Part shown: positions 12,366-41,509 of the stretch, one piece after another | How the letters are laid out: each line of letters begins with the position of its first letter | How positions within the stretch are numbered: position 1 is the first letter of the stretch | Assembly: GCA_030141605.1 (NCBI GenBank) | Contig: JAQGDQ010000348.1 | Span: forward strand, 1 to 64,000 | Direction of reading: 5' to 3' | From: Tubiluchus corallicola | Taxonomy: Eukaryota; Animalia; Priapulida | Length of the DNA stretch: 64,000 nt | Notes under the pieces: generated by a model | The model's input: the letters and a program-made list of their open reading frames with translations, nothing else | Databases searched by the model: none | What the model was told of the DNA's origin: nothing | Position numbers and translations under genes: made by a program

Positions 12366-12505
12366 TTATATCAGCAGTCCTTGGCACATTTTAAAAAAGA
12401 TCGAAACACATTCTGTTGCTTCAACGCTGCCATTCCAATATTGATTCACTTGAGAATTGTGTAGGTGGCGCTCCTCTTTGAGAAGTGTTTCCAGAACCTT
12501 CCAAC
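12366..12505 (-). CDS. TTLL4-like terminal exon 14 ([15 protein letters not shown]...QGLLI*)
   Basis: Acceptor gattttctag in phase 1. G..LL..L....H pattern as at the end of the TTLL4 conserved region. TAA at 12368-12366. Confidence 0.72.
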
Positions 12506-15500
12506 CTAGAAAATCACAAGAATGCTTTTGTAGTAGATCTCTGTCTCTAAGTAAATTTCAGCGATCATTAAAGTGCAGACTCACTAAGCTGAACTTGACG
12601 ATTGATTGACCGACTTAGACTGAATCTAGTCTTACATTTCACAGAATAAAGATGGTGACGATTGCATTAATCTTGACATTAACGATGACGGCGACAATAA
12701 AAAGTACTATTAAAACATTATATATTACTTTTGAATAGTTCATTGGAATGAAAAAAATATGGCCTATCTTATTAGAAACACAATTTTTTGACATCTCTTA
12801 TGCACTGCCGGCTAAGAATATAACATCCTTATGCAAAATAAGACATGTCCACTGGAATAGGAGGTGCCTGGTCAATACCCAGTAGGTTTACAGATAGCAA
12901 ATCTGCTTTAACTGACTGTTCATAAATTGAGACTTGACTTCAGATCCCCCTGCTAACTTACAGCGACATGTACACTTTCTACACTAAATCAAGATTGGGG
13001 TATTCAATGTATAAACCAGAGCAGAAGAATAACGCCGAAGAAACTTAACTATACTACTCAAGAGTGACACGCAGACAACTTAACAGTACTATTCAAGAGT
13101 GACACACAGACAACTTAACAGTGCTGTTCAAGAGTGATACGGAGACAAGTTAACTATTCTACTCAAGAGTGACACGCAGACAACTTAACAGTACTATTCA
13201 AGAGTGATACGGAGACAAGTTAACTATTCTACTCAAGAGTGACACTGAGACAACTTAACTGTACTATTCAAGAATGATTCGCAGACAAGTTAACTATTCT
13301 ACTCAAGAGTGACATTGAGACAACTTAATTGTACTATTCACGAATGATTCGCAGACAAGTTAACTATTCTACTCAAGAGTGACACTGAGACAACTTAACT
13401 ATACTATTCAAGAATGATTCGCAGACAAGTTAACTATTCTACTCAAGAGTGACATTGAGACAACTTAACTGTACTATTCAAGAGTGATGCGGAGACAAGT
13501 TAACTATTCTACTCAAGAGCGACATTGAGACAACTTAACTATACTATTCAAGAATGATTCGCAGACAAGTTAACTATTCTACTCAAGAGTGACATTGAGA
13601 CAACTTAACTATACTATTCAAGAATGATTCGCAGACAAGTTAGCTATGCTACTCAAGAGTGACATTGAGACAACTTAACTGTACTATTCAAGAGTGATGC
13701 GGAGACAAGTTAGCTATTCTACTCAAGAGCGACATTGAGACAACTTAACTGTACTATTCAAGAATGATTCGCAGACAAGTTAACTATTCTACTCAAGAGC
13801 GACATTGAGACAACTTAACTGTACTATTCAAGAGTGATGCGGAGACAAGTTAGCTGTACTACTCAAGAATGACATTGAGACAACTTAACTGTACTATTCA
13901 AGAGTGATGCGGAGACAAATTAACTATTCTACTCAAGAGTGACACTGAGACAACTTAACTGTACTATTAAAGAATGATTCGCAGACAAGTTAGCTATGCT
14001 ACTCAAGAGTGACATTGAGACAACTTAACTGTACTATTCAAGAGTGATGCGGAGACAAATTAACTATTCTACTCAAGAGCGACATTGAGACAACTTAATT
14101 GTACTATTCAAGAATGATTCGGAGACAAGTTAACTATTCTACTCAAGAGTGACATTGAGACAACTTAACTGTACTATTCAAGAGTGATTCGCAGACAAGT
14201 TAACTATTCTACTCAAGAGTGACATTGAGACAACTTAATTGTACTATTCAAGAATGATTCGCAGACAAGTTAACTATTCTACTCAAGAGTGACATTGAGA
14301 CAACTTAATTGTACTATTCAAGAATGATTCGCAGACAAGTTAACTATTCTACTCAAGAGTGACATTGAGACAACTTAACTGTACTATTCAAGAATGATTC
14401 GCAGACAAGTTAACTATTCTACTCAAGAGTGACATTGAGACAACTTAACTGTACTATTCAAGAATGATTCGCAGACAAGTTAACTATTCTACTCAAGAGT
14501 GACATTGAGACAACTTAATTGTACTATTCAAGAATGATTCGCAGACAAGTTAACTATTCTACTCAAGAGTGACATTGAGACAACTTAACTGTACTATTCA
14601 AGGTGATTCGCAGACAAGTTAACTATTCTACTCAAGAGTGACATTGAGACAACTTAACTGTACTATTCAAGAATGATTCGCAGACAAGTTAACTATTCTA
14701 CTCAAGAATGACATTGAGACAACTTAATTGTACTATTCACGAATGATTCGCAGACAAGTTAACTATTCTACTCAAGAGTGACATTGAGACAACTTAATTG
14801 TACTATTCAAGAATGATTCGCAGACAAGTTAACTATTCTACTCAAGAGTGACATTGAGACAACTTAACTGTACTATTCAAGAATGATTCGCAGACAAGTT
14901 AACTATTCTACTCAAGAGTGACATTGAGACAACTTAACTGTACTATTCAAGAATGATTCGCAGACAAGTTAACTATTCTACTCAAGAGTGACATTGAGAC
15001 AACTTAATTGTACTATTCACGAATGATTCGCAGACAAGTTAACTATTCTACTCAAGAGTGACATTGAGACAACTTAACTGTACTATTCAAGAGTGATGCG
15101 GAGACGAGTTAACTATTCTACTCAAGAATGACATTGAGACAACTTAACTGTACTATTCAAGAATGATTCGCAGACAAGTTAACTATTCTACTCAAGAATG
15201 ACATTGAGACAACTTAATTGTACTATTCACGAATGATTCGCAGACAAGTTAACTATTCTACTCAAGAGTGACATTGAGACAACTTAACTGTACTATTCAA
15301 GAGTGATGCGGAGACAAGTTAGCTATTCTACTCAAGCGTGACACACAGACAACTTAACAGTACTATTCAAGAGTGATGCGGAGACAAGTTAGCTATTCTA
15401 CTCAAGAGTGACATTGAGACAACTTAACTGTACTATTCAAGAATGATTCGCAGACAAGTTAGCTATACTACTTAAGAGCGACATTGAGACAACTTAACTG

Positions 15501-18500
15501 TACTATTAAAGAATGATTCGCAGACAAGTTAACTATTCTACTTAAGAGCGACATTGAGACAACTTAACTGTACTATTAAAGAATGATTCGCAGACAAGTT
15601 AGCTATACTACTTAAGAGCGACATTGAGACAACTTAACTGTACTATTAAAGAATGATTCGCAGACAAGTTAACTATTCTACTCAAGAGCGACATTGAGAC
15701 AACTTAACTGTACTATTCAAGAGTGATGCGGAGACAAGTTAGCTATTCTACTCAAGAGTGACACACAGACAACTTAACAGTACTATTCAAGAGTGATGCG
15801 GAGACAAGTTAGCTATTCTACTCAAGAGTGACATTGAGACAACTTAACTGTACTATTCACGAATGATTCGCAGACAAGTTAGCTATTCTACTCAAGAGTG
15901 ACACACAGACAACTTAACTATACTATTCAAGAATGATTCGCAGACAAGTTAGCTATTCTACTCAAGAGCGACATTGAGACAACGTAACTATACTATTCAA
16001 GAATGATTCGCAGACAAGTTAGCTATTCTACTCAAGAGCGACATTGAGACAACTTAACTGTACTATTCAAGAGTGATGCGGAGACGAGTTAGCTATTCTA
16101 CTCAAGAGTGATACACAGACAACTTAATTGTACTATTCAAGAGTGATGCGGAGACGAGTTAACTATTCTACTCAAGAGAGACATTGAGACAACTTAACTA
16201 TACTATTCAAGAATGATTCGCAGACAAGTTAGCTATTCTACTCAAGAGTGACATTGAGACAACTTAACTATACTATTCAAGAGTGATTCGCAGACAAGTT
16301 AACTATTCTACTCAAGAGCGACATTGAGACAACTTAATTGTACTATTCAAGAGTGATTCGCAGACAAGTTAACTATTCTACTTAAGAGTGACATTGAGAC
16401 AACATAACTGTACTACTGAAGAGTGACATGGAGACAACTTAACAATGCTACTCATGAATGATACGGAGACAAGTTAATTGTACTATTCAAGAGTGATACC
16501 GTGACAGGTTAAGTATACTCTTCCTAGGTAGCTGCCAATCAAGGCTGGTAAACATAAAATTAATGGGTAATATATAATATATACACAGTGAGCGGTAATT
16601 ACATTGTGCTTGATGACCAAAGTTAAGAATGCTACTGAGATGGACAGTGAATGGATGGGTGAACTGCACATTGCAGTGTTTCGGGATTTCAGTAAAAGCA
16701 GCTTGATACACGCTTTTGGTTGTCTCACACATTATGCTAAATGTTGTTTGCCTTGCTGTAGCTAACCAGGTGCATTTACATCTGAATGTGGCAAGGACAC
16801 CTCCGATGGTTCAGTGGTTCATCTTAGAGGATAAGTCTAGGTTCCGGTCTTCTCTGTACATTAAGCAAGCACTGCCGCTAACAAATGAATTCTAGTTTTA
16901 AGCATGCCGAATTGCATTAAGTAAAATAAAGGTAAACAGAATAATTACAAAAATTCCGATCATCGTCATCATCATCATCATCATCATCATCATTATTAAT
17001 CTTACCTTCCTCGGGATTATTGTGATATTTTCTGGTCCAGGCATCAAGGAGTAAATTACTGTAACGTTTATTCTCAAAATATTTCAAATATTTGTGAGAA
17101 GTTGGACTGGGAAAGATTCGCTGGAAGCTTCCACGTCTCTGATGCTCATCTTCTACTTCTACCAGCTCACGTACATCAGCTGGTGTGAGCACTTCTAGAA
17201 TACGCTCTGTTATTTCCTAGACAGAAACAAATAATTCTAATACACGAAGGAACATTATCATCCTGTTCCACACTGGGTTAAAAATGGTCACGTTGTGAAT
17301 GGTCAAATGATCGTATTTAGAAAGCGCCTGCCCCCAGAGCTAGGTTTACTCCCAAAAGTTACCTCTTCTGACGTTCTGGTGGTGAAATAGATGCGCTTTG
17401 CCTTTTCATCCTCAGTAAGACGAGAATCTCGTAGAGAAGTTGAACTGATTTTTACTTCCACGTTTTCCTGCGGGAAGAATTCCCTGAAAAACGCACTGAA
17501 TATGAACAGTAAGGTACAAGCGAGAAAACTGTGGTGAGTGAAGATGTCGTCACACTTCAATCTCTGCTTAAAGTTTGTTTTTATAACGTTACAAATATCA
17601 CCTATAACTATGGACTATTATTAATTTAGTCTACATAGTCCGTTTTGGTTATTACACCAAGCCCAGAGCTGACATGACTCTACGTCCTCGTGGCTTATGC
17701 TTACGTAAATTTGTTAATTTTTACTCAACAGTATAGATTATCATCATATATCACTAACATAGGTTCCTAACCTTTTACTAACAAAGTGGCCTTTCAGCGA
17801 TCTGTCACCTACCCCTTAACATTTTTTAACAATAAAAGTTTCAAGAAAACATTTTCTACTATTATTATGAAATTCTGTTAGATTATAATTTAATTTTGAA
17901 AACAAACAAAATAATAAAAAAGTCATTATTTTCAATTTACACGTTTATTTACGTGTAGTACTCTCTCTGCTGATACTTCTTCTTAAAAGCAGTTATTTTT
18001 AATTTACACATTTCCAAATTCAAGAACAAAATACAAGAAAAAGACATTCGGATGTCAAATCAGAAGTCGAACTAGCAGTTGAACTATGAAGTAACCTCAA
18101 TGGCCGCCTTTGTGAAGCGGATTTTTCCGGAAGCCGCCAACCTTACCTTCCGCTTACACATATGTTGTGCCAAACACACAACCTTTCCTTCCGCTTACAC
18201 ATATGTCATGCCAAACACACAACCTTTCCTTCCGCTTACACATATGTTGTGCCAAACACACAACCTTTCCTTCCGCTTACACATATGTTGTGCCAAACAC
18301 ACAACCTTACCTTCCGCTTACACATATGTTGTGCCAAACACACAACCTTACCTTCCGCTTACACATATGTCGTACCAAACACACAACCTTTCCTTCTGCT
18401 TACACATATGTTGTGCCAAACACACAACCTTTCCTTCCGCTTACACATATGTCGTGCCAAACACACAACCTTTGATTCCGCATTCACATATGTCGTGCCA

Positions 18501-21500
18501 AACACACAACCTTTCCTTCCGCTTACACATATGTCGTGCCAAACGCACAACCTTTCCTTCTGCTTACACATATGTCGTGCCAAACGCACAACCTTTCCTT
18601 CCGCTTACACATATGTCGTGCCAAACACACAACCTTTCCTTCCGCTTACACATATGTTGTGCCAAATGTCTATTTTACATAATAAATTAACCTCGTTATA
18701 ATGCCAGGCAGTGCGCAGTGAATTACCCAAAAAAACGCTACAGTGTCGCAAAAACAATGACGTTTCAAAATACAAACAATCATGATGTCTAAAGATTTAA
18801 TCTTGTAACTCTTTCCTCATACCACGAGGCCGTTACTCCCGTAAAATTCGTACTCCATACGTGTACGCTGTGCGGCAAAAAAGAACATTCTGATGTGTTA
18901 CACGACACAACCTTCGTGTACCCCTAGCTTAGCTGTTTCGTACCTCCAAGAGGTACTCGTGCCCTAGGTTAGGAACCACTAGAATAAAGCATCCACAGAC
19001 AATCCTAAGATTTCAAGTTCAAATCCCTTGCAACTGTTAAATCTGCTTTCAACAAGCCTATATTGAAATAAGATGTCATCTTCAAGTTCATGTCAAAGCA
19101 ATGAGAAATAAAAAAATCTGGTGCCAAGAATCCCCCTTGCTTTGCACCTGAATTACAAATGGCTCGAGCTGACACAAGGTTTATAGCATTGAAACTTTCG
19201 CCTAATTACAACAGAGCTGTAGTAGTGATTTTGCAGTTTAGTGCATATTCGTAATACAAAATGTCATGTCAGTAACGTTATGTTTTTTACAAAAACTGCG
19301 CTTGGATTTTTGCAAGTACGATTTTAGAAGGCGAGGAAGTGAAGGGTGATCCAAAAAGTGCAATGCAAATGTGAAAAATGTTATAGAACAAACTTGCTGC
19401 ATTTCATATACTCTGCTAATGCTATTACGTGCTATTACAGTGCTATTACGTGCTATTACAGTGCTATTACAGTGCTATCTCACTGCTATTACAGTGCTAT
19501 TACAGTGCTATTACAGTGCTGTTACGTGCTATTACAGTGCTATTACAGTGCTATTACAGTGCTATCTCACTGCTATTACAGTGCTATTACACTTATTCAA
19601 CTTTCTGTGGTGTAACACTTGTTATTACGCTGTTTCTTTTGAAACACCCTATAGAACACAGGTGAAAATTGCAGGTATTTGCTACAGCAAGTAATGAGCA
19701 CTACTGTATTCAATTTGATGAAAAATAATTTGCATGCTTTCATGTTTGGAGTAATATATCACCAGGTAGAGAGGCTAAGCAGAAACAGAAACCTTTCATA
19801 TCACACCTGTTAGTACTTACCTCAGCCCTGTTGAGGGTTTAGGCAAACGTGTTGGTACCTTATAACCCGCAAGGTTAAAAACATCTCGGCGCACAAGATA
19901 ATTTATACTATATCGATTGAAAGTCAACCTAAAGTAAAAAGACAATGATAATGAATATATTCTCACACTAAGAACAGTTCTAAATAATTAATTTATTGTT
20001 TCGTATATAAAACATTTCTTAAATATTTTCATTTTTTACATTTGGACAAACTGCAAGTTCTCATCTAGTATTCACTAGCAGGGCCTTTTCAATGTGGATG
20101 CTGAGACCATAACCTGATTCATTATCAAGTATGACTATCTAAGATGAACCACAGGGCCTTTCCAATGTGGATGCTGAGACCAGAATCTGATTTATTATCA
20201 AGTATAATCACCTAAGATGAACCACAGGGCCTTTTCAATGTGGATGCTGAGACCATAACCTGATTCATTATCAAGTATGACTATCTAAGATGAACCACAT
20301 GGCCTTTTCAATGTGGATGCTGAGACCATAACCTAATTCATTATCAAGTATGACTATCTAAGATGAACCACAGGGCCTTTTCAATGTGGATGCTGAGACC
20401 ATAATCTGATTCATTATCAAGTATAACCATCAAAGATGAACCACAGGGCTTTTCAATGTGGATGCTGAGACCATAATCTGTTCTTTATCAAGTATGACTA
20501 TCTAAGATGAACCACAGGGCCTTTTCAATGTGGATGCTGAGACCATAATCTGATTCATTATCAAGTATAACCATCTAAGATGAACCACAGGGCCTTTTCA
20601 ATGTGGATGCTGAGACCATAATCTGATTCATTATCAAGTATAACCATCTAAGATGAACCACAGGGCCTTTTCAATGTGGATGCTGAGACCATAATCTGAT
20701 TCATTATCAAGTATAACCATCAAAGATGAACCACAGGGCCTTTTCAATGTGGATACTGAGACCAGAATCTGATTCATTATCAAGTATAACCATCTAAGAT
20801 GAACCACAGGACCTTTTCAATGTGGATGCTGAGACCATAACCTGATTCATTATCAAGTATAACCATCTAAGATGAACCACAGGGCCTTTTCAATGTGGAT
20901 GCTGAGACCATAATCTGATTCATTATCAAGTATAACCACCTAAGATGAACCACATGGCCTTTTCAATGTGGATGCTGAGACCATAACCTGATTCATGATC
21001 AAGTATAACCATCTAAGATGAACCACAGGGCCTTTTCAATGTGGATGCTGAGACCATAATCTGATTTATTATCAAGTATAACCATCTAAGATGAACCACA
21101 GGGCCTTTTCAATGTGGATGCTGAGACCATAATCTGATTCATTATCAAGTATAACCATCAAAGATGAACCACAGGGCCTTTTCAATGTGGATGCTGAGAC
21201 CATAATCTGATTCATTATCAAGTATAACCATCTAAGATGAACCACTGAATAAGTGAGTGTTTGTTAGTTACGCAGGGACTATATACGTCCTCCATCTGTA
21301 AGGTTTAAATAGCCAGATTCGGTATGACAAATGAAACTTCTCAGAGCGGGAATTGAACCCATTTTGACCCTCGCTAACCACTTTAACTCAGCCATAAATT
21401 ATTTTGTTCTCTAAGATAAGAATTAGTTATTTTTTTTAATAATAAATTGTTTATTGTTTATTTATAATATTGTATCTAAATTGTAAAATTAGAATTGTAT

Positions 21501-22434
21501 ACTGAAGTAAATATAAATTAATACCCAGGTTTTGGATTAACCTCCAGTAGCCATGGTTTCAGTTTGTGGTCGAACATGACGTCATATCCGTACAGTGCAT
21601 AACAGGAAGTGTTTCTTGCGTAAGTGTTGGTCAAGTGATATATTTCAGATTCTGCACTGTAAGACAAATGGTGCTGAGGTAAAAACACTTGCATGAGATA
21701 CCCCAATCTTTACTAGCAAAACAAGCACTAATTGTTAAAAATTGTTAATTGTCATTAAGCCTTTTCACAGCTCCAGCGATTAATGATGATCTAAAAGGTC
21801 AAAGGTTAAGTGCACCAGACAACGCATTTGTGTACATTTGACAACGCCTCGTAGCCCAAGCTGCTGTAATAGTAACAGATTTAACAGCTAGCTAGAACCC
21901 TACCTAGTTCAATTTTTCCTGTTCTCAAGCAAGATCCTGCTAGTAAATCACTCTACTCACAGACTAATGGATAATTAAGTAAAGTCCACGTAAAAAAGCT
22001 GAAGTTACTGAACTGTAGCAACAGACGGCAATTGCTTTACCCACATGTCACGTGATGGTTGTAGTTAAGACGCGTTGCTGTGACGGCACTTAACCTTTGA
22101 CCTACTGCAACTGTGCTCCTCTTTGTATGTGCAGCAACAACACATTGAGGTCTTCAGAATGTTACTTGCAAAGTCTGCAGTCACACAAAGGTCTCTTGCC
22201 AGTTTCCTACTGCACACGTGCATTAGTACGACCTAATCGACTCAACAGTTGCAGAAAGTTTAATAGTTTCAATCTGTCCTGGTTACCCAGTTGCATAATA
22301 ATTACCTTAAAAACTGTTTTATAATGAGGTCCTTAATTTCTTCCACAACAACGCCCGCACGAATGCCTCGAGATTCAAGGTAGCGCCATAAAGTTTTCAA
22401 ACTCCTAAAAATACAATTAAAATTCTAGACCTCA

Positions 22435-22481
<47 letters not shown>

Positions 22482-22489
22482 CAATGATG

Positions 22490-22564
<75 letters not shown>

Positions 22565-25500
22565 GATAATAATAATAATAATAATAGATAACTAGCAAAG
22601 GCCCCGCAAAAGATTTTGTGTAAAAAACCACGTATAATCAATAATACGCGAACATCCTACCTAGTCCTCATTTATAACACAAAGCCCTTAACATCATGCC
22701 TACTGTTTGTTTAACTAACGCAAAGCCTGTAGCTTTTTGCTGAATTAAAGTTATAAGCAGAGTAGAGTACAATGGATGACGTCACAACAATGCCTTTGCG
22801 TCAACAGTTTTCTAAGCGAAAATTGCCGAAAATAGAACTGGTAATTAACTTGCCAGTACTCCTCTCGGTGGACGTGTCCTAAAATGTAGCCTACATCATC
22901 GTGTGTCCCCATTCTTCCTCTTTCTAAAGAGCCGTATATCTCCTTCTGAGAGTACCACCAGGCGCCGCTAGAACATTTTTTCTGCAGGCTGTTTGCCCAA
23001 AATTTCGAAAAAATCGAGAGTTGGGTCCGGGAAAACGCCCGTTGCGGAACCACGTGGCCCTCTCGCGAATTCTAGATAGGCCTATGACACCCATCGCTGA
23101 ACGGGCAATCTATCCATATCCAGCATCGCCCTCGGCCCATTCCCGTTCTCTACATCTCAGGCGTATAACTTTTGCAAAAAACGGCCGAAAATGGCCATTT
23201 TTGGAGGTTTTTCGCCTCCCCCTCCTTCCGGTGGGCCCCATTCGAAAAATAAACCATCAATGGCACGACACTAGATCGAGACCTTTCGTTTGATGTATAG
23301 ATCGCCGCAAATGGTGCCATCGTCCGGGCTGTAGCCTCGAATCTTATATATATATATATAAATAAATAAATATATATATACCAAGTATATTAATATAAGA
23401 GTATAGATAATACTCTTTGTTTAAATCAAATTTGGATCGACAATTAACATATGCTCCAAAGAGCTTTTGAGCCGACTATAAACAACAACATACAACTACA
23501 TAACAGAGACTATTATTACCCCACTTTTACCCTAAATACCACACCCCTGGCAGGGGCAACAGCAGGTACCATTTTTTGGTATGACCCGTCCGCTGTATCG
23601 AACTCACGATCTCCCAGACGGAAAGCGAACGCGTTACGACTAGACCAAACCATCTGGTCGAAAACATTTTACAAGGATAAAAGAATGGAAAACTCTGTAA
23701 TTTCGACTTCACTTAACTTCAACTAAAATGAAGTTTAAAGTGAGTTAAGTGCACTTCATATTTCAAAAAAAGTTTTATTTTTCACGGGAGCTTTCGTCCT
23801 TCGTCAGCTGTAAGGTAAAGGTACAATAATAAGAATCATAAAAACTACTGATAAAACTACATGTAAATTATAAGTATACAATGACATTAAAATAGGCAAC
23901 ACGAAATTCATTAAGAATCTCTTAACTCATTTATTTTAAGAAGCTGAAAATTCATTAAGAAGTATTACAATTTTGTATCCCTTATTTTAATGTCATTATA
24001 TACTTATACTTTACATGTAGTTTTATCTGTAATTTTTAAGTTTTTTTTATATCTCTATCTTGGAGCTGATGAAGTCAGTGAATGACGAAAGCTTCTGGAA
24101 AAATAAAAGTTTTTTTTGAGATTTAACCATGGCAGGTTTATGAAAAGCATTATCATATTTTTGATTTAAATGCATTTAAAGAAGGAAGACCTACCATTTG
24201 TGCGCAGATTCTCCGATTTTTGTAAACCTTTCATAATATGTTGGACTGTACTGGTTAATGGCAACATTGGTCAAATGGATGAAAGCGTCATGTAAATCGT
24301 TAATTCTTCTGTTATACCTGAAAAATGCAAACAATAACAACAAGAATAACAACAATAAAAGACTAAAATCAAGAGAAACTTCTGGTGACAGGTAGCGCAC
24401 AAAACCGACACATGAATATTCTTCCTCTGTCTAATCCTTTGAATCAAACAAGGAATGGTCTTTGTCTGAGCAATCCCAAAAACCTAATAATTAGATTATT
24501 CTTACTCTGTCCAATTCCAGAAGGCAGACAAAGGGATTTCCTTTCTTTATTAAATCCCATAAAATAAACAATATGATTGTTCTTGCTCTGTTCAATCTCA
24601 AAAACCAAACAGCACTAGGATCGTTCTTGGTCTGTTCAATCCCCAAAACCAAAATAGTACAATTGTTCTTCCTCTGTTCAATCCCAAAAACCAAAGTAGT
24701 AGGATTATTCTTGCCCTCTTCAATCCCAAAAACCAAAATAGTACAATTGTTCTTGCTCTGTTCAATCCCAAAAACCAAAGTAGTAGGATTGTTCTTGCCC
24801 TGTTCAATCCCAAAAACCAAAATAGCAGGATTGTTCTTGTTTTGTTCATTCCCAAAAAACAAAATAGTATGTTTATTCTTGCTCGGTTCAATCCCAAAAA
24901 CCAAAATAGTAGGATTGTTCATGGTCTGTTCAATCCCAAAAACCAAAATAGTAGGATTGTTCTTGCTCTGTTCAATCCCAAAAACCAAAATAGTAATTGT
25001 TCTTGGTCTGTTCAATCCCAAAAACCAAATTGTAGTAGGATTATTTTTCTTTGTCCAAAACTAGAAACCAAACAATGATTGTTATGTTTCTGTTTCATTT
25101 CAGAAACCACACAATGAATATCTGATGCAAAAGCACCTGCATAAACTATCATGTTATCGTTTTTGTACCGTGCCATAGCTCGTGTACACCGCACCTCACC
25201 ACAACATGCAACTGTCAACAGTTTTTGTAGCCAAAGAACCCAAAAACTGAGAAAGAAAACAGATATCACTAAGACTGAATAGACTTACATAGCTTGGAAT
25301 ATTGTTATTGCTCGTGTCCAATTTGATGTAGGGTCAAGATTTGCCAAGGAAGAAAGAGTTGTTGAAGACGAGAAAGAGAAAAGAGATAGATGTTAGTATG
25401 TCAATTATGTCGAACGTGCATCACAGTAGAACATGTGAACGTACCTTTTTGTTGCAAATCTCGCGACTCCGCCGTCATGTAAGTAGATTCTCAAAGGTTC

Positions 25501-28500
25501 TATTGATGACACGTACACGTGCATTCGCAAATCAAACTTAAGCCCTTTGATAAGATATGGCCTCGATACGTACCTATTAATAAAAATATTTACATAATTA
25601 GTGTCGGAAAACACAATCTTTAAACTGTCAAATTTAACCTAAACCAATATACCAGAAGTATTGGTATATTACAACTGTAAAACAATATATTACAGTTTTT
25701 ATTGTAAAAGAAAGGCCAAGTCTTCTGGGAAGTTAAGGTTATATGAATGTTTGCGAAATATTTTAGAATGATTTAGTAATAAAACTGCAATAAATGAATC
25801 GTGTAATTAATAAAATCACTTTAAAGTCGCGATCACTTCATGCTTAGGCGCTACCATTTTGAACGCTCATTTTTCCACCAATGATGTCATTCACCCGAAA
25901 AAAGTAGCACACTGTCAAACTGCGTCAAAATAGTATACGTTTTTACAAAAAAATAGATTCCTAATTTTGGCGTGAACCTTAGGTACCTTAGGATCTCTAG
26001 GTAAGCTGCAGAAGTTTGAATTAGTTTAAGTAGCGCCCTTACAGAAAGCCACGACACGCTTACAAAAAGTCACGAAGTCTCCCAGTTACGTCATGATTTT
26101 CAAGTGAATGGCGGCAACCACCGCACCTGAAAATTTCTATTCAGATTTAGCATGTTTTAAATTTATGTTTTATATACAGTTTTCTTTGCAAATTTTTTGT
26201 TATATTTTTTATATAAATATGTCATATAAACATTATATATCTATATATGTTTAAATGACAACAGTCAAATAAACCCAACATACTAAGTGACTTGTTTTTT
26301 CTCTATGATAGATGCTCACCTTTGAACAACTTGTCTTCCGCACGGCACTTCTGTCAAACTTTTGATTACCTTAATACCTTGGCCTGATGATTTGTCTGGC
26401 TATAAAACATTGAGATATTAAAAGTCAGAAAATATAACAATTTATCTCAAATAAATTTACTTCTCTTTTACATGATTTCTAAAGGCCTTCACTCTAGTGG
26501 GTTCATTTACTCTGATTAGTTGGGCTGTGAAACATTTAGCTGCAAAAAAGGCGTCAAAAAATCTAGCAATTTAACAAAGATAAATGTATTTCTTTTTGAT
26601 GAATTTTAAGAAAGTGGAGTCCAAACTGAGTGCTTGTTCTGATGGGCTGAAAGACGCCTAGATATAAGAACAGCAGAGAATGTAACAAAACAATTAAAAT
26701 CTATTAGTTCTCGTTTTCTGGAATACAGAGAAGTACTCTTAGTCTAGATCTTTGTTCTGGTGAGAGTGGTGTCAAAAAGTATCAGATAAATTAGCAAAAA
26801 CAACTAAAACATGCGGGAAGAAAAACAGTTTAAATAATCTTCATACAGTCGCAATATTATATACGCGAGCTGTTGAAACAGTTTGTTTCTAATTTATCAA
26901 GGCTACTGAAGTAGTGTTTGTACCGTATCAAAGCTACTGAAGCAGTGTTTGTACCGTATCAAAGCTATTGAAGCAGTTTTGTACCGTATCAAGGCTACTG
27001 GAGCAGTTTTTGTACCGTATCAAAGATACTGAAGCAGTTTTTGTACCGTATCAAAGCTACTGAAGCAGTTCTTGTACCGTATCAAGGCTACTGGAGCAGT
27101 TTTTGTACCGTATCAAGGCTACTGGAGCAGTTTTTGTACCGTATCAAAGCTACTGAAGCAGTTCTTGTACCGCATCAAGGCTACTGAAGCAGCTTTTGTA
27201 CCGTATCAAAGCTATTGAAGCAGCTTTTGTACCATATCAACGCTATTGAAGCAGTTTTGTACCGCATCAAGGCTACTGAAGCAGTTTTTGTACCGCATCA
27301 AGGCTACTGAAGCAGTTTTTGTACCATATCAACGCTATTGAAGCAGTTTTGTACCGCATGAAGGCTACTGAAGCAGCTTTTGTACCGTATCAAAGCTATT
27401 GAAGCAGCTTTTGTACCATATCAACGCTATTGAAGCAGTTTTGTACCGTATCAAGGCTACTGAAGCAGTTCTTGTACCGTATCAAGGCTATTGAAGCAGT
27501 TCTTGTACCATATCAACGCTATTGAAGCAGTTTTGTACCGTATCAAAGCTATTGAAGCAGTTTTTGTACCGTATCAAGGCTACTGAAGCAGTTTTTGTAC
27601 CGCATCAAGGCTACTGAAGCAGCTTTTGTACCGTATCAAAGCTATTGAAGCAGCTTTTGTACCATATCAACGCTATTGAAGCAGTTTTGTACCGTATCAA
27701 GGCTACTGAAGCAGTTCTTGTACCGTATCAAGGCTATTGAAGCAGTTCTTGTACCATATCAACGCTATTGAAGCAGTTTTGTACCGTATCAAAGCTACTG
27801 AAGCAGTTTTTGTACCGTATCAAGGCTACTGAAGCAGTTTTTGTACCGCATCAAGGCAATTGCTGCTGTTTTTGCGCCCTATCAAGGCTATTGGGGCAGT
27901 TTTGTACCGTATCAAGGCTACTGAAGCAGTTTTGTACCGCATCAAGGCTACTGAAGCTGTTTGCTGTTTGTGAAATTCGCTGTGACCTGGCTGCGGAACC
28001 TAAGGACAAACCTGCCGATCTTTTATATTTCAGAGAAGTTAATGTTTAAACTCAGTGAGTTTGTTTATTCTGATTGGCTGTAAATAATTTAAATTAAAAA
28101 CAACATCAGTAAACATAACACAAGTTACAGAATTGGAAACTATTTTTCTTTCTTCTGTATGAAAAAGTATGTCTTACATTGAAAATGGTAATAACTAGGG
28201 AAAAACATGACGAAATATCTGTGTTCTTCTAACTTTATCTAACTAAAATTAAAGACCCCAAGGCATGAATCTATTCAATTTATTTCTTAAATTGTTATTG
28301 AATTCTCTCCTAATTTCAGCGTGCATAGCCGAATGCGGAAATATCTGTATTTTTTAACTTTATTTTAATAGACACATTGAAGTACGTGTTCTAGTTGTGT
28401 TGTTTATTCTGGAGCTTCTGAAGGCGTTTGAGCAGGAAGGCCAAAAATTCTAGTTATGCAGCTACGTGCTGCTAGTTATACAAACCGGTTTCAGAATCCA

Positions 28501-31500
28501 CAGTTTGTCTGGATGATTTGCCACAAACTTCTGATATTTGAACAGATCTTCTGGTAAAATGAAGGTGTAGGGCATGAAGTTAAACTCTTCTGATCCAAAC
28601 TTGGAACGCATCGCTTTGTAGTTCCACCACAGGTTATCCTTGCGCATGCTTTCTCCAGGAAAATGATCGTACTGTAAATATTAGCCATGTATTATGTATG
28701 CAGTAGATCAGAAAACTGCTACTGGATAGTTGCTAAAAGTAAAAATGTAAAGAAATGATGGACTGGCGTGAAGAAACGACAACTTAAAAAGCACAAGAAA
28801 ACCCTCCACTTACATAAAGCTTGTCTTGAAATTTTATACCACTCACATACTGCCTTTTTGCATGCAGGGTTTGCATCGGCAGTAACGCTGTATAAAACTT
28901 GTAAATTTAGACTCCCGCGATGACTGTTAGGCTCAGCCGTTTTGATCATAGGTCATTTGAAATAAGTTTAGATAACATTGCGTAAAGTTTGGAAAAATAA
29001 TCAGAGCATTCGTAGCTTACCTGTTACTAACTAAATGAACTTTTAAATACTGTATCTTGTCAATAAGATTAAAAATGCATTTTTGGTTAGTGAGTGGCGC
29101 ACCCTGGAGGGTGAGGCAGCGACATTTTAGCAATTGGCACGAACGTTTTAAATGATTAGTCTAGTTACATAAGTCTTTGCAGCAGGTAAGTGAAATGCTA
29201 AGTAATATAGATTTGCATAGAAAGTTTTTTGAGTCAGAATTTAACGTTTCCATTTTTCCCCGATTTACGTTTGTGTAGGTGACGTCATGTAACGGCGACT
29301 TTGGAACAGTATTGCGGAAAATTTAAAATGAAAACAAACAAAAATTCCTTTTACGTTGAGTACGATATAAGAAAAAAATGCTATAAAGTATCATTATATT
29401 TCAAGGCGCTTTTTTTCTGAAACCTGCTTTAGGTACTCCTTTTCTTCTTCTCTAAATATCCAAAGGAGAACAAACGTCAACGTAAAATACATTTGTGTAG
29501 ACATTGTTAACATTTTACGTTTGGGCCCTTATTCTTAAGACCATTGTCAGCAAACAATATATATATAAACCATAAAGTTAAAAATAGTCAGAACATTTGT
29601 TGTATGGGGCTCGGAAGGGATAAGTAGTTTGGGAAAGTTTTGGGGTCAGAATCATAACGACGGGGTCATAATCCACCAGTATTAATTACTTTATGTAGCG
29701 AGTCAGATTAATAATACGTCAATCAGGCAAGCCAAATGCTAAGTAATATAACTAAGGTTTTTTGGAACATACTTTAAAGTTTCCTTTTCCTCCACTTTAA
29801 CTTACTTATTGCAACATAGGAATTGGTTTGTTATCAAGGACAACTTTAAATCTAAGATAAGCCACTGAACTGTCAGACGTACCGTATTTTCCCGTGTATA
29901 AGAGACCCTTGTGTATAAGAGACCCCTTCAATTTTTAGGCAAAAATTCTGGAAAAAAGTTTTTTTCAGACGGACATTTTTAGAGGGTAAAGTACAACTTT
30001 TTTCAACTCAGTGCGGTACTGAAAACAAAATAAAACCAGTTAATGTGTTGTAGAAAAAGAGTACTGGTATATATTAAAGTGCGTACCTGCAAACCTGTAA
30101 CAGGAAAAGAGAAAACGAGGAGATAATGCCTGTGTCACGATGCTTGTATTGCTTACAACCGCTTCATAGTCGAACGCGACACGCAAAACAGTTGTAGAGC
30201 ACTTATTTCTTTAAAATCATTAGTGTCACAATTTATGCATCTTATTGAAAAGACTTACTCCCATGTATAAGAGACCCCCTATTTTTAAAGTGAAAATTCT
30301 GAGCAAAAAAGGGTCTCTTATACACGGGAAAATACGGTATTTTAAATTTCAGTGGTTTATATATGAGTAAATTTCCTATTAGCAGTACAATGAGCAATCC
30401 TATGTTTTGCACTAGTTCTAATATCAACTGGCGAAAAATTAGACTGGCGACTGGCAAAATGATGCACTGGCGAAAAGATAGATTGGAAAAATTATGCACT
30501 GGCAAAATGTACTACTATTTAAATACTTATTGCACTATTTTTATTATCAACTGGCGAAACGACGTACAGTCCAATACATCTTCCCACAACAAGTTAAATA
30601 GCTAGAGAAGCATGGCGAATAAAACCGCCCAAAGAATTTTCTAAGATTTATCCATCCATTTGCTGACTATACTCAGCTTTGCTTAACTTTGGTCGATACG
30701 CACACTCTGCTATTATTTTTGCACCAGCAGTTACTTAATGATTGTTTGTCTCCTCGCCAAGATCATATTCACTGATGCAAATGAAAACATTATGACTTTC
30801 ATAATGGCTGTGCAGTAGATTCCTTACCTTTTGGAAGTGCTTTAAGTTTGCATAGTTTTCGTTGCTTATTTGAAAACACGAGCATCCTAACCAGGTATCG
30901 TCAAGTTTATTTGCTAAAAAAATACAAAACAAAACAAAAACAAACAATACATGCAACATAAAAATCTGCCATATTATTTAAGCGAGTCCATGGAGATTGC
31001 TTAAGAATAGGCAGTTCTACTACACAAACTCAAAAAATTAAAACTGAACAGCAAAAAATCAGAAGTGCTCAGCAAAAATCCAAAACTCTCAACAAAAAAT
31101 CAAAAGTACACAACAAAAATTCAAAAGTTGCCAGCATTAAATCAAAATTGCACAACAACAAATCAGAAATGCACAAAAAGAAATCAAAATTGCACAATAA
31201 GATATAAGAATTGCGCAACAAGAAATGAAAAATGCATAACAAGAAATCAGAAATGCACAACAAGAAGTCAAAATTGCACAACAAGAAATGAAAAATGCAT
31301 AACAAGAAGTCAAAATTGCACACCAAGAAATGAAAAATGCATAACAAGAAATTAGAAATGCACATCCAGAAACCAGAAATACACAACAAGAAATCAGATA
31401 TGCACAACAAGAAATCGAAAATGCACCACAAGAAAAATCATATTTACAACAGCAAATCAAGTCAATACCGGACAAGAACAACCAGAAACAACAAACCGAT

Positions 31501-34500
31501 CCATAAAAAGATGCCAGAGGTTGACATTAATTAAAAATCGTCAAATAAAAGTTGATTTTTTTCAAATCGATTTTCAGATCGTCCTATTTTTTAATGTTTT
31601 TCAAACAATACAGCTTTGACAAATGCAACCTAGCCACGGGGGGGGGGGGGGCAAGCCAGCCCAACTCAGTGCCGGTCCCAAGCCCGGCTAAATAGGGAGG
31701 GTTAGGGTCAGGAAGGGCATCCGCCTATAAAAACTGCGCCAAAACCTTCTGTGAATGAGTCGGTGAGACTTAAAGGTAAGGCGATGGTATGGACACCTGA
31801 AAAGAAGAGTCAGTGAAGATCATGTGGGAAGGGAAGACATAAACGAAGGGATGGTCAACAACAGGAATGCGTGGAGAAGACTCATTCACAACGGCGACCC
31901 GCATAGTGAAAAGCTGGGAAGAAGAAGAAGACAGCTTTGACAAATGCAGATAACAGACACATGGTGGAAAAATCTACACTATTTCAAGGGTATCGAGTTA
32001 CATATTTACCAAAACTGTGTTTGCATCTGTGTTTAATTAAAGGGCAAGAAAGCACTCCTCATAAATTCGAAATTGAAACCTTGCATCACTGTTTTTATTG
32101 CGTACAGAGCTTATATTAACATTAACGCTGCATAAAACTTGTAAATTTAAACGTCCTCGATGACCGTTAGGTGCAGCCATTTTAACAGTAAGTTGCTCGA
32201 AATAAGTTTAGGTAACATTGTGACAAGTTTGAAAAAATAATCAGAGTATTCATAGCACACTTTGCGCTAAATAATTTAAAATATTACTTTAGAATGTCAG
32301 TAAGGTTAATACCGTTAATTATTTGTTTTTAATTGTGAGCCAGTTATTTGTGAGCCATTGATGCACACTGGGTTGGCGATGCTGTGCTATTTTACCTGGT
32401 GGCGCCAATATTTTAAATTATGAAGAATTTTCTTTCCCAATTACGTCATTAGAACAGGTAAGCGTAATGCTAACTGATATATTTTCCTAGGCGTATTTTG
32501 GATTTAATTTAAAATTACCATTTTTCATTAAAACTTCATTTAAAATTCCTTTAAACTTAACGCGAAGCCTTTTAGGAGGTATGTAGGAAAATACTTAGCA
32601 ACAATATGATATTCTGTAAGAGCACACTTACTTGTGAGATGAAAGTTGGAATGCCAGAGGATAGCAACTGCATGAGAATCTTTTCTACTAATCTTAAATT
32701 TCAGGAGTTTCTTCATGTGCACAGGAAGTTCGTCAACTGTAGAAATGCAAAAAAACTCAGTAAGAACGTTATAAAACATGGCACACAGTCAAAAGTTCAA
32801 AGGTCAATGTCAAGTTTGGACGTGGTATATTTCGAAATGAGAGGTCAAATATCATTATCGCTGATAGACATGATACATTGTGAGCTCACAAGTCGAAATT
32901 CAAAGTTAGGAATAAATATGGTACATTACATAGTCAAAAGGTCAAAGGTTAATGCCAACAATATATTATATATTATGAGGTCGAAGGGTCCAAGGTCAAA
33001 TGCTAACATGGTGTGGTATAAGATTGTTTGTCTGCCAATATGAAAATTTTCTCAAAGTAAATAATAGAAATTTACTAAAATTTTGCAGTAGATTTGTCTT
33101 TAAAATGCAGAAGGACTAAATTTAAGTTGTCAGAGTTTTAATAGCAGCTGGATAATGAAACTTGTATCAACGTGTTTGGTAAAATTGAGCCCATTTATAT
33201 TTACGCACGCGTCAGTGTGTAAGCACTTTCCTGCGTTGACAGATTACTGTTGTTGACAGCAGGCATCCACCGTTAACCCCAAATATTACCAAATTTTGAT
33301 CATTTGAGAATTCAACTAATCACAATTAGTTTTGCACAACATTTTGGGACTAGCAAAACGTGAAAACTTGAAACGTGAATGCACGCCAAGCATTGTCTTG
33401 CACTCTTTAAAGGAGAAGAAAAGGGATACCTGAAGTAGGTATCAGAAAAATCGCCTTGAAAATTATATTACTTTACAGCAGATTTATGGATACAACGTAC
33501 TCGCGTTGAAGGAATTTTAGTTTGTTTTCATTTTAAATCTCCCGCAGAACTGTTCCGAAGTCGCCATTACATGACGTCACCTACACAAACTTAAATCAGG
33601 GGAAGAAAAGACAATGTTAAATTATGTCCCAAAAATCTTTCCATGCAAGTATATATTACTTAGCATTTCGCTTACCTTCTGCAAGGACTTATGTAACTAG
33701 AAATAATAATTTAAAATGTTCGTGCCCATTGGTAAAATTTCGCTGGTTCGCCCTCCAGGGTGCACCACTCACTAACCAAAAAACTTATTTTTAATCTTAT
33801 TGACAAGATACAGTAATTTAAAATTTTACTTAGTAATATGTGTGCTACGAATGTTCTGATTATTTTTCAAACTTTACTCAATGTTATCAAAACTTGTTTC
33901 AAACGACTTACCATTAAAATGGCTGCGTCTAACAGCCATTGCGGAAATCTAAATTTATCAATTTTATACAGCGCAAGTGGTATAAAATTTCAAGACAAAT
34001 TTGTCAAGCCTTATGTAACTGGAGGGTTCTCTTGTGCTTTTGACCCTTTCAGTAAAAACTATAGATGTATGCAACTATAGCTAGTACTACAATAAGAACC
34101 TCCTAAATAACTTTACCTATTTGACCAGGTAAAGCGAAGTTGATTACAGGTGTAACATTGGAGAAAATACTGGTGATAAGTGCCGGAATTCTTCTCGGAC
34201 ACACGTCTTCTAATGAAGAATTGTCTGACTGATGAGAAGAAAGATCTTTCCATATTCTGTCATGGATTTCTGAAACGAAATTTATTCTGTGAATTAATTT
34301 AAATTTACAAAAAGTAGGAACCCTTAAACGCATCTCAGAAATAACACTAATTTGCCTCAGATAGGTTTAATTACGTGATGGTCATTACTGACATTACAAG
34401 TGGCTGAATATCACTCATTCCATAATAATTGTACGATATAGAACTTGTTCTGCTAATTAACACAGATTATTTCCCAGAATATTTCCCAGATTATTTCCCA

Positions 34501-36121
34501 GAATAGTGAAAACGAAAAACAAACAAGGAATAAGAAAGAAAGGTGACAACGTTTCAAATTACCAATGTAGTTCTTCCTCTGGTGAAAAAAAACAGCAAAA
34601 AAGACTAAAGAAAAATCATAAATATTGTAGTTGTAGTAACCCTAACAATCTAAATCTGTGTAGAGAATAACATCAATCATTTTAAAATTATTATGTCTTA
34701 AAAGTGTCGATGATCTTAGATGTCAAATTTTTTAAGACACACTTAAAGCAAAAAACCGGACCCAATCTTAAACTGAAGGTCAAAACAATCTAATATTTTA
34801 AATATCGAAAGGAAACATACTATTTTTTCAAAAATAAAAGAATTGTTACCTCACAAACACAATTTCACGTTCGTGCCACTAGTTCTTCACTGTTACGCGC
34901 ATTTCACCGGCATCTACAAGTTAGACGGGCACTAGCGCCTGCATTTCGGAAACGCGTTGCACAAAAAACAAGTGCTGTACCTCTCAGCTCAGATGTGTTA
35001 CTTTGTTACGTACTGCACACGTTTGACAGCTCATGCATAAATTTGAAATTTGAATTTTTATCTTAAAACTTGTCTAGTTTTAGTACGACACACTGAATAT
35101 CTTGCAGTAGCACTGTACCTCAATTTTCGCTTTGACAAACACGTGCAACACGCTCGTGGAATATTTTTGATGTTGAAAATTAAGTTAGTTTGTGAAGTCA
35201 TCAATAGTTGGGCCCGCCCGACGTTAATTAAGATTTTAATCTATTATTCAATTATCAGAAACGCTTTTGCAGTATTAATAATGATAAAATGTAGACTTTT
35301 TATCGGACTTGAAAATATGGTACTATATGAAAAATCATCCTTTAATAACATTTTATCCTATGTTGTTCTCAACTCTGGTATTTCTATATGTTCACTGGGA
35401 TGAAATTTTAATATACTTTTAATGTATGTATCATTCATGTAGAGAATTTTCTTTTTAATGAACCTTCTCTTTAGTCTTTCTTAATCTTTGTAAATGATTT
35501 TTACGTATGTAGCTAATTTTATTTTATCTTTTTCAATCCGTATAAGACTACGTCTATGTCTACTTGTTGAAATGAAAGAATAAATTTAAAATGAAAAATT
35601 ACCATGCCACTGTCTAAATTGTAGTCATGCAAGGACTTAACTCTACAGTCAGAAACGTAGCAAAAGAAAACAGAGCAAACTTGAAACTTGGACTGAAAAA
35701 AAGAGTTTACTACACGATGAACATCGCTGGTCGATAAAGGACTTATGTATAATTAGGTTTTTTTTAATATTAGTAGGGCCTACTTGAAACATTAACATTA
35801 CATCTGTACTACGGGAGTTAAAAATGATCGATAAGAGATCGTTGGATCGTGTATGAATTTATACACATGCACATGAACACTCACACACACATGCACACGC
35901 ACACGCACGCATATGACTTATACAGTTAACAAGCTCATAATTTCCCCCCGAAATCATCGCCTCAGTCGGTTCGACTCAGGACACAGCTGAATATTTAAAA
36001 TGCTCAATGAATTTCAAAATACTTCTATATAAGGTAAAACTGTAACTTATTACATACCTGTACTTCCGGTTAGATGAAAAACTAGAGTTAGAACAAGAAA
36101 CAAACACAACCGGGGTTTCAT
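12366..36121 (-). CDS. TTLL4: TTLL4-like tubulin-tyrosine-ligase-family (ATP-grasp) ligase, 14 coding exons, 578 aa, with predicted N-terminal signal peptide
   Basis: Manual join(36121-36058, 34269-34117, 32736-32632, 30913-30828, 28671-28486, 26399-26320, 25573-25445, 24317-24195, 22404-22306, 21656-21525, 19928-19821, 17483-17363, 17216-17006, 12505-12366) = 1737 nt, open throughout, GT-AG introns. Motifs HFPG..RKD, WILKP, VQRY, KFDLR, RFAT, HLTN, HKW, YGYDVM, WLLEVN, plus the TTLL4-type C-terminal block [25 protein letters not shown]. It is a divergent TTLL4-like paralogue; orthology is not established. Confidence 0.9.
13040..16510. repeat. 35-bp satellite organised as a 70-bp A/B dimer, about 99 monomers (TTLL intron 13)
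   Basis: A=AGACAACTTAACTGTACTATTCAAGAATGATTCGC and B=AGACAAGTTAACTATTCTACTCAAGAGTGACATTG alternate. Confidence 0.97.
17006..17216 (-). CDS. TTLL4-like exon 13 ([24 protein letters not shown]...KYHNNPEE)
   Basis: Strong resemblance to the TTLL4/TTLL5 C-terminal helical block. Donor G|GTAAGA. Confidence 0.93.
17363..17483 (-). CDS. TTLL4-like exon 12 (EFFPQENV...[13 protein letters not shown]...)
   Basis: L..DE..K motif. Acceptor ttttcag, donor GAG|GTAACT; phases match both neighbours. Confidence 0.85.
18139..18666. repeat. 41-bp tandem repeat, about 13 copies (intron 11)
   Basis: Unit AACCTTTCCTTCCGCTTACACATATGTTGTGCCAAACACAC. Confidence 0.95.
19420..19591. repeat. 11-bp tandem repeat (GTGCTATTACA)n
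   Basis: Directly visible. Confidence 0.9.
19821..19928 (-). CDS. TTLL4-like exon 11 ([25 protein letters not shown]...)
   Basis: RD..NLAG motif as in TTLL4. Acceptor tactttag, donor AG|GTAAGT. Confidence 0.88.
20079..21248. repeat. 73-bp tandem repeat, about 16 copies (intron 10)
   Basis: Unit CAGGGCCTTTTCAATGTGGATGCTGAGACCATAATCTGATTCATTATCAAGTATAACCATCTAAGATGAACCA. Confidence 0.97.
21525..21656 (-). CDS. TTLL4-like exon 10 (AESEIYHL...[22 protein letters not shown])
   Basis: Metal-binding Asp and EVN motifs. Acceptor tcttacag, donor GG|GTATTA. Confidence 0.93.
22306..22404 (-). CDS. TTLL4-like exon 9 ([32 protein letters not shown])
   Basis: Resembles TTLL4 ALKALWNYL..IKDVVVKT. Acceptor tttttag, donor AG|GTAATT. 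Confidence 0.9.
22435..22590. repeat. Compound (ATG)n(AAT)n microsatellite next to the exon 9 acceptor
   Basis: Directly visible. Confidence 0.95.
22900..23380 (+). mobile_element. Dispersed repeat copy ending in (TA)n, related to 700-1048
   Basis: Sequence similarity to 800-950; GC-richer than its flanks. Confidence 0.6.
23450..23659 (-). mobile_element. tRNA-derived SINE
   Basis: Minus-strand head with A-box-like TGGTCTAGTCGT and B-box-like GAGTTCGATAC. A more decayed relative lies at about 11640-11752. Confidence 0.65.
23760..24120. mobile_element. Inverted pair of Penelope-like termini with hammerhead-core remnants
   Basis: 23760-23897 is an imperfect reverse complement of 23980-24120. 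CTGATGA..GAAA core at 24066-24090. Confidence 0.5.
24195..24317 (-). CDS. TTLL4-like exon 8 ([21 protein letters not shown]...AHKW)
   Basis: HLTN motif. Acceptor tttttcag, donor TG|GTAGGT. Confidence 0.93.
24577..25045. repeat. 42-bp tandem repeat, about 11 copies (intron 7)
   Basis: Unit TTGTTCTTGCTCTGTTCAATCCCAAAAACCAAAATAGTAGGA. Confidence 0.93.
25445..25573 (-). CDS. TTLL4-like exon 7 ([23 protein letters not shown]...RFATK)
   Basis: KFDLR and RFA signature motifs. Donor AG|GTACGT. Confidence 0.95.
26320..26399 (-). CDS. TTLL4-like exon 6 ([27 protein letters not shown])
   Basis: GxGI loop and VVQR. Acceptor ttttatag, donor AG|GTGAGC. Not in the ORF track because it is short. Confidence 0.9.
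26895..27962. repeat. 30-31-bp tandem repeat, about 34 copies (intron 5)
   Basis: Unit TGTACCGTATCAAGGCTACTGAAGCAGTTTT. Confidence 0.96.
28486..28671 (-). CDS. TTLL4-like exon 5 ([18 protein letters not shown]...WILKP)
   Basis: TTL-domain start motifs and the ATP-binding Lys of WILKP. Acceptor tttacag, donor CCG|GTTTGT. Confidence 0.93.
28783..29455 (+). mobile_element. Non-autonomous DNA transposon, Kolobok-like family copy 1
   Basis: Colinear with 48184-48843 and inverted relative to 33411-34045. Confidence 0.75.
29882..30337. mobile_element. Tc1/mariner-type MITE
   Basis: Perfect TIR CCGTATTTTCCCGTGTATAAGAGACCC at both ends, flanked by TA target-site duplication. Confidence 0.9.
30828..30913 (-). 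CDS. TTLL4-like exon 4 ([14 protein letters not shown]...KHFQK)
   Basis: Acceptor ttttttag, donor AAG|GTAAGG. Contains the WLGC motif. Confidence 0.88.
31040..31440. repeat. Degenerate 21-bp tandem repeat (AAATCAGAAATGCACAACAAG) (intron 3)
   Basis: Directly visible; it gives rise to the 7-aa periodic ORFs in the track. Confidence 0.85.
31628..31930 (+). mobile_element. Short non-autonomous RTE-related retroposon with an 18-bp TSD
   Basis: ACAGCTTTGACAAATGCA is duplicated at 31610-31627 and 31931-31948. RTE-like 5' motif CCCAAGCCCGG..GGAAGGGCATCC; (GAA)n tail. Confidence 0.8.
32632..32736 (-). CDS. TTLL4-like exon 3 ([17 protein letters not shown]...HSNFHLT)
   Basis: Acceptor tttctacag, donor A|GTAAGT. 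Resembles TTLL4 VEKLP..RKLLRWKMS. Confidence 0.88.
33411..34045 (-). mobile_element. Non-autonomous DNA transposon, Kolobok-like family copy 2 (inverted)
   Basis: Begins ttaa-AGGAGAAGAAAAGGGATACC; reverse complement of the 28783-29455 and 48184-48843 copies. Confidence 0.75.
34117..34269 (-). CDS. TTLL4-like exon 2 (IHDRIWKD...[23 protein letters not shown])
   Basis: Acceptor tttcgtttcag, donor G|GTAAAG. Resembles the TTLL4 PAL..SLF.NV.P.I.F block. Confidence 0.82.
34745..35400 (+). mobile_element. Dispersed repeat also present at about 42995-43700
   Basis: Shared blocks cccaatctta.actg.aggtcaaaacaat, cacaaacacaatttc..gttcg.gccacta and ttgcacaaaaaaca.gtgc.gtacctc. Confidence 0.7.
36058..36121 (-). 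CDS. TTLL4-like exon 1: signal-peptide exon [21 protein letters not shown]
   Basis: ATG at 36121 directly preceded by an in-frame TAA. Donor CAG|GTATGT is phase 1, matching the exon 2 acceptor phase. Confidence 0.7.
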
Positions 36122-38436: not shown

Positions 38437-38480
38437 ATAATAATAATAATAGTAATAATAATAATAATAATAACAACAAC

Positions 38481-38579
<99 letters not shown>

Positions 38580-38623
38580 AACAACACAACAACAACAACA
38601 ACAACAACAATAATAATAATAAT
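38437..38623. repeat. (AAT)n/(AAC)n microsatellite
   Basis: Directly visible. Confidence 0.95.
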
Positions 38624-41454: not shown

Positions 41455-41487
<33 letters not shown>

Positions 41488-41509
41488 CCACTCTCTCTAT
41501 ATCTCTATG

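Follow-up and report, generated by a model that had tools for sequence, protein, structure and literature searches.

TTLL enzymes are known for writing the tubulin code in the cytosol and in cilia; has one of them moved into the secretory pathway of an animal? The question is raised by the first 64,000 nucleotides (nt) of contig JAQGDQ010000348.1 from Tubiluchus corallicola, hereafter the window, which hold an intact, TTLL4-derived gene whose 14 exons run along the minus strand between 36121 and 12366. A preliminary description had proposed that its product is retargeted by a signal-peptide exon. Judged from the sequence, there is an even chance that the gene encodes an offshoot of TTLL4 with a cleavable signal peptide; such an enzyme would be active extracellularly or in the ER/Golgi lumen, and its probable task would be to join a non-glutamate amino acid to acidic side chains. 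Beyond the preliminary description, an altered donor pocket and a probable gene family are added here.

Gene structure and TTLL4 ancestry

All 13 introns of the gene model are of the GT-AG type with matching phases, and the spliced product has 578 amino acids (aa). Three of the 12 exon translations scored above the 20.1-bit cut-off of the Pfam TTL family (PF03133), and a fourth matched below it. The alignment with TTLL4 spans approximately residues 45-560. The TTLL4 origin assigned by the preliminary description is supported by a 177-row FastTree tree and a 56-row IQ-TREE quick tree, both of which place the model in the TTLL4 clade; the 37-row clade with the named TTLL4 proteins received a support of 99 in the Shimodaira-Hasegawa-like approximate likelihood ratio test (SH-aLRT). 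The 56 rows were our own selection from the 177, the named TTLL5 comparators are protist proteins, and none of the rows is a named glycylase.

Inside the TTLL4 clade, on a long branch, the model pairs with a protein labelled P0001 (support of 1.0 and 99). This closest relative is a singleton, a 465-aa assembly product annotated as TTLL4-like by Atlas, with 241.9 bits to Pfam TTL and 45% identity to the model over residues 102-547. Named TTLL4 proteins are 38-40% identical to the model over about 500 aa, and 44 of 52 highly conserved columns are kept in it, the second lowest number among the 177 rows. By these comparisons the gene is a fast-evolving offshoot of TTLL4. Metagenome scans with exon 2 and exon 13 yielded 590 and 598 pattern matches, respectively, and none of these was a relative. 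An exon-5 query against 1.84 billion representatives returned general TTLL4/5 matches only, and a word search with exon 5 gave no match.

Compared with the TTLL4 tubulin monoglutamylase (an initiase, PF03133), the model has its domains in the same order, down to the helical region at the C-terminus, and its exon 4/5 boundary coincides with the start of vertebrate-like exon fragments. It differs from TTLL4 in the predicted signal peptide, in Ser for the initiase Arg, in Asn for the lysine equivalent to TTLL6 K377 within a shortened loop, in Pro/Lys instead of Ile/Ser after the EVN motif, and in the long branch common to P0001 only.

The first exon and its junction with exon 2

The candidate first exon was found as previously described: its ATG at 36121 comes right after an in-frame TAA, and the 64-nt segment ends in CAG/GTATGT in phase 1, 1.8 kb upstream of exon 2 on the same strand. 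At the start of its translation, a pair of basic residues precedes a hydrophobic core of 11 residues, after which small residues follow, and the core, with a mean Kyte-Doolittle value of 3.16, is the top window of the whole protein. According to the -3/-1 rule of signal-peptide cleavage, the leader would be cut near G19/S20. The exon-1 donor (score 10.0) is the best among the ATG-open donors in 34330-46000, a stretch of 11.7 kb upstream.

Both strands of the window (128 kb) were scanned for exon-1-like elements, which were ATG-started, stop-free segments of 14-40 codons in all phases. Each had to combine a basic n-region and a hydrophobic core free of charges with a good donor, as scored with a matrix of the gene's 12 internal donors. 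The exon-1 candidate was the single match at strict cut-offs and two matches were obtained at lenient ones; an order-4 Markov null of 2 Mb gave 4 and 29 matches, and thus probabilities of 0.01 and 0.07 for at least one match within 5 kb, at cut-offs that were picked with the candidate already in view. Over 36095-36680, the window and the contigs of DNA run X1 disagree at 2 of 588 bases, against 40 of 2578 bases over seven other single-copy pieces (p 0.016); these were selected, listed pieces, two of the seven containing exon sequence, and the low divergence is a weak hint of constraint over 36095-36680. It is likely from these sequence features that the first exon encodes a cleavable signal peptide, and we consider it reasonably probable that a signal-peptide form is made, whether by itself or beside a second isoform.

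The minus strand has a GTAAGT at 36153-36177, shortly upstream of ATG 36121, together with a pyrimidine-rich CAG at a distance of 22 nt from it. This CAG could turn exon 1 into an internal 96-nt exon following an untranslated exon; both sites score low on the gene's matrices. TATA-like (~36228) and initiator-like (~36200) motifs seen by eye were discounted for their poor match to the consensus.

The preliminary description had also stated that exon 2 needs a phase-1 donor, which does not necessarily follow, since two more AGs lie in the open frame, 34286 giving phase 2 and 34228 giving phase 0. Its secretory interpretation is partly supported: the leader features are present and rare by chance, but the same exon has a competing phase-2 reading. 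A non-hydrophobic frame of 69 codons from ATG 36266 reaches the same strong donor in phase 2, and the phase-2 acceptor 34286, 17 nt from acceptor 34269, fits it. The gene could accordingly encode a divergent cytosolic paralogue of TTLL4 that uses acceptor 34286 and has its start codon at 36266 or in some exon beyond the window, in which case the signal-like peptide would be a by-product of T-rich sequence read in another frame; we regard this as unlikely. In its favor, the null has 1.1% of positions per frame in open frames of at least 97 codons, and the 69-codon frame is about as unexpected by chance as the signal peptide. On the other side stand the rarity by chance of a K/R start, an 11-residue hydrophobic core and a small c-region after an ATG, and the fact that the 69-codon frame has no Pfam match and that tblastn with 265 homologues gave no match outside exons 2-14. 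A small 3-periodic coding model, by which the true frame was chosen in 11 of 12 held-out exons, gave the 69-codon frame -0.067, a value under those of all 12 true exons, which is a weak argument against it; over the shared 64 bases, the signal-peptide frame received -0.084 and the other two -0.125 and -0.265.

The acceptors were compared as well. YTNAY is the branch-site consensus, and acceptor 34269 has YTNAY adenines at -25 and -21; in this it resembles 7 of the 12 downstream acceptors, where such an adenine lies between -19 and -27. The motif occurs only at -8 and -4 of acceptor 34286, and neither 34286 nor 34228 has one beyond -8. An AG lying 12-20 nt upstream is skipped in 6 of the 12 downstream introns. 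The scores on the gene's own matrix count against a signal-peptide junction: acceptor 34269 scores 0.9, with a leave-one-out range of 2.7-10.8, and acceptor 34228 scores 6.8; acceptor 34286 scores -0.2, which burdens the cytosolic alternative. In one of the X1 contigs, a deletion of 11+1 nt (net 12 nt) at 34254-34266 preserves the frame, and the two differences common to all three X1 contigs near this position are synonymous; coding upstream of 34228 is therefore favored. Two further X1 differences in the stretch upstream of 34228 alter residues. No exon-exon joint was seen among the 15 of 221 joints shown from run X2 (RNA by guess, and repeats only), which is evidence neither way. The sequence evidence leans to acceptor 34269 over 34286.

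Both frames may also be in use. If exon 1 is read in two frames, a choice of start and of tandem acceptor would produce a secreted form (36121/34269) and a cytosolic form (36266/34286). Such dual targeting would account for both coincidences, as each frame is ATG-started, open to the shared donor and provided with an in-phase acceptor. However, the second acceptor is weak, and the openness of the second frame over its last 21 codons may partly follow from the T-rich hydrophobic codons; we hold dual targeting to be quite improbable.

Further properties of the protein and its relatives weigh against a secreted product. Of 296 homologues, isoforms included, 193 are near-full-length and start with Met, and not one of these has a signal-like N-terminus; the sole close relative, P0001, is without its N-terminus. 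The sequon density is 3.5 per 500 aa, and the median of 127 homologue cores is 4.5; cysteines make up 0.8% against 1.7%, with no enrichment; and the core stays basic, with a net charge of +14 against a median of +16.5. The best conserved exon in comparison with P0001 is exon 13 (75%), which aligns weakly to residues 434-462 of TTLL6, inside the microtubule-binding domain, located at 392-459 in the TTLL6 paper (bioRxiv 10.1101/2020.06.07.139295). The absence of signal-like homologues, the conservation of this region and the short N-termini common in animal TTLL4 all fit the cytosolic paralogue; the exon-13 region may instead be kept for folding.

Some signs of secretion listed in the preliminary description lost their force. 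Its sequons exist, at 38, 59, 357 and 557, but as their density is at background they are no evidence of secretion; KDEL is absent from the 578-aa model, as it had noted. Its argument from the short N-terminus fails: an anchor motif lies at residue 55 in the model and within the first 100 residues in 27 of 54 animal TTLL4 rows, namely those of 66 that are Met-started and reach the motif, some of them possibly truncated predictions. The missing long N-terminal extension is thus ordinary for animal TTLL4. None of four features examined as a sign of secretion was accepted: sequon density, the proportion of cysteines, net charge or a short N-terminus. Eight matches with hydrophobic starts proved to be short exon fragments with read-through leaders rather than signal peptides.

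Donor pocket, copy number and features of the window

Residue equivalences were obtained by mapping the TTLL6 sites of bioRxiv 10.1101/2020.06.07.139295 via PDB alignments (6vzq/6vzt/8t42) and our own alignment. Seven TTLL6 residues, K125, K174, R219, R241, N264, D346 and E359, are each required for activity according to that paper. All seven equivalents, which serve ATP, Mg and the acyl-phosphate, are kept in the model and likewise in P0001. Two lysines contact the donor glutamate's gamma-carboxylate, of which K283 is kept (K308) and K377 is lost, its equivalent in the alignment being N395 in a loop shorter by 3 residues. The K377 position is occupied by K in 64 of the 66 animal TTLL4 rows, with gaps in the other 2; in P0001 the deletion at this place is longer. 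At the position of TTLL6 Q180, the initiase Arg is S203 in the model; it is R in 52 of the 66 rows and in P0001. According to bioRxiv 10.1101/2020.06.07.139295, K377 binds the donor glutamate and is invariant in glutamylases, not in glycylases and TTL, and K377A abolishes TTLL6 activity.

The core motifs reported earlier are therefore kept with respect to ATP and Mg binding, but not at the K377 equivalent and the initiase Arg. Because these two are lost, the protein is probably not a standard glutamylase, and the proposed blotting with anti-polyE/GT335 becomes a weaker test. By its sequence the protein probably still makes the acyl-phosphate, but a standard initiase of glutamate it is unlikely to be; the alternatives would be a changed donor amino acid or an impaired enzyme. 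R391, near N395, might substitute for K377. The drift of this pocket is not unique to the gene: among the 66 animal TTLL4 rows, 14 are without the initiase Arg, and in 13 the K283 position is occupied by Met. The source of these 13-14 rows is likely a long-branched hymenopteran group (bee and sawfly TTLL4; P0164-P0189), and insect TTLL4 may also have changed specificity.

By analogy to K377A the protein may be catalytically inactive, and it could be one member of an expanded family that has died or is decaying, binding ATP and acidic peptides or simply drifting, at any location. The second lowest count of conserved columns, the several copies hinted at below, and the residue changes in 6 of the 9 listed exonic differences from X1 would agree with decay. 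These difference lists are partial and mix copies, though, and 578 codons are open across 13 canonical introns, with seven of seven ATP, Mg and phosphate residues kept here and in P0001 despite 45% identity. We consider a dead or decaying copy improbable.

Run X1 covers intron 1 and exon 1 with single contigs at a depth of 7-17. Over exon 2 it has 6 contigs with a summed depth of 167 at 34168, and 3 contigs on its 5' half; 9 contigs with a depth of 225 were found at 28626 (exon 5), and one contig of depth 68 over exon 7. Summed contig depth is not copy number, and the exon-centred peaks hint at a multi-copy TTLL4-like family in the genome. Exon 1 was not found at 80% identity or more in the extra X1 copies, a search by which a fast-evolving exon of 64 nt would be missed. 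At 28626 and 25524, all X1 contigs shown encode Arg152 and Leu242, and the window has Trp and Met. Arg152 and Leu242 also occur in canonical TTLL4s; the window copy may have private changes or assembly errors at these two sites.

Exons of the TTLL4-derived gene and regions bearing on its first junction
Feature	Position	Strand	Remark
Exon 1, coding part: predicted signal peptide, 21 aa + 1 nt, phase-1 donor	36058..36121	-	Donor score 10.0
Exon 2: linker and first TTLL4-conserved motif	34117..34269	-	
Exon 3	32632..32736	-	
Exon 4	30828..30913	-	
Exon 5: K147 and K197 (TTLL6 K125, K174)	28486..28671	-	Pfam TTL E 1.6e-7
Exon 6: phosphate loop; S203 at initiase-Arg / TTLL6 Q180 position	26320..26399	-	
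Exon 7: R241 and R263 (TTLL6 R219, R241)	25445..25573	-	Pfam TTL E 9.9e-16
Exon 8: N285 and K308 (TTLL6 N264, K283)	24195..24317	-	
Exon 9	22306..22404	-	
Exon 10: D367, E380, N382 (TTLL6 D346, E359, N361)	21525..21656	-	Pfam TTL E 1e-10
Exon 11: shortened loop, N395 at TTLL6 K377 position	19821..19928	-	
Exon 12	17363..17483	-	
Exon 13: C-terminal helical region	17006..17216	-	Weak alignment to TTLL6 microtubule-binding domain
Exon 14, including stop codon	12366..12505	-	ATTAAA at 12330
Competing 69-codon non-hydrophobic frame, ATG 36266, phase 2 at exon-1 donor	36058..36266	-	
Exon-2 acceptor region: acceptors before 34269 (phase 1) and before 34286 (phase 2)	34270..34310	-	

Tandem arrays, mostly in the introns of the gene, occupy 13000-16480, 18100-18690, 20060-21260, 24490-25060, 26900-27900, 31000-31500 and 59900-61500, with units of roughly 70, 41, 73, 36, 31 and 21-33 nt; several of them yield spurious long open reading frames (ORFs). 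A rhodopsin-family G-protein-coupled receptor is encoded by a single long ORF on the minus strand at 3881-4999 (373 codons stop to stop, Pfam 7tm_1 E 2.9e-25) and has a duplicated Ser/Thr/Asn-rich N-terminal stretch. The regions 53400-55600 and 56640-58500 look by eye like broken retroelements, putatively of the long interspersed nuclear element type and the long terminal repeat type (Pao/BEL-like); a Pfam test of 56643-57203 gave no match.

Relation to known ligases and proposed function

Searches of an open-licence literature library gave no secreted TTLL4, in line with the preliminary description, and a secreted TTL-like protein has been described outside the clade (PMC2824669). This source describes C7orf58/CPED1 as a secreted TTL-like ATP-grasp domain combined with cadherin-like and PC-esterase domains, and predicts that it ligates amino acids to surface proteins in the secretory pathway. 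A TTL-family ATP-grasp domain with a predicted secretory-pathway role is thus common to CPED1, as described there, and the model. CPED1 is multidomain and only distantly related to TTL, whereas the model is stand-alone and nested within TTLL4; no esterase or cadherin-like part occurs in the 578-aa model, which ends at the exon-14 stop. This nesting would imply an independent move into the secretory pathway if the protein is secreted.

With TTLL6 (6vzq/6vzt/8t42) the model shares all residues essential for the handling of ATP, phosphate and Mg. Like the glycylases and TTL as described in bioRxiv 10.1101/2020.06.07.139295, it is without a lysine at the K377 position. As differences from this set of enzymes, its Q180 position holds neither Gln nor Arg, K283 is kept, and the protein does not branch away from TTLL4.

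For the secreted ligase that we prefer, splicing would join 36058 to 34269 and translation would begin at ATG 36121. The lumen of the endoplasmic reticulum (ER) and Golgi supplies ATP, with which the ATP-grasp enzyme could be active in the ER/Golgi lumen or extracellularly. The chemistry would presumably be the standard one of two steps, in which the acceptor carboxylate is phosphorylated and a free amine then attacks, and a non-glutamate amino acid would probably be joined to secreted proteins at their acidic side chains. Our guess, from the glycylase pattern in the TTLL6 paper, is a donor that is small or polar, for instance glycine.

On a wider scale, it is conceivable, though on balance doubtful, that an animal lineage has turned TTLL4 into multi-copy secretory peptide ligases with a rebuilt donor pocket and a new non-glutamate modification, possibly with a switch between secreted and cytosolic forms. 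If the secreted enzyme is real, it would represent a second, independent route to extracellular amino-acid ligation, besides the putative domain of CPED1, and a compact single-domain enzyme near solved structures would make the idea of extracellular ligation directly testable. Even for a cytosolic protein, the altered donor pocket hints at new chemistry.

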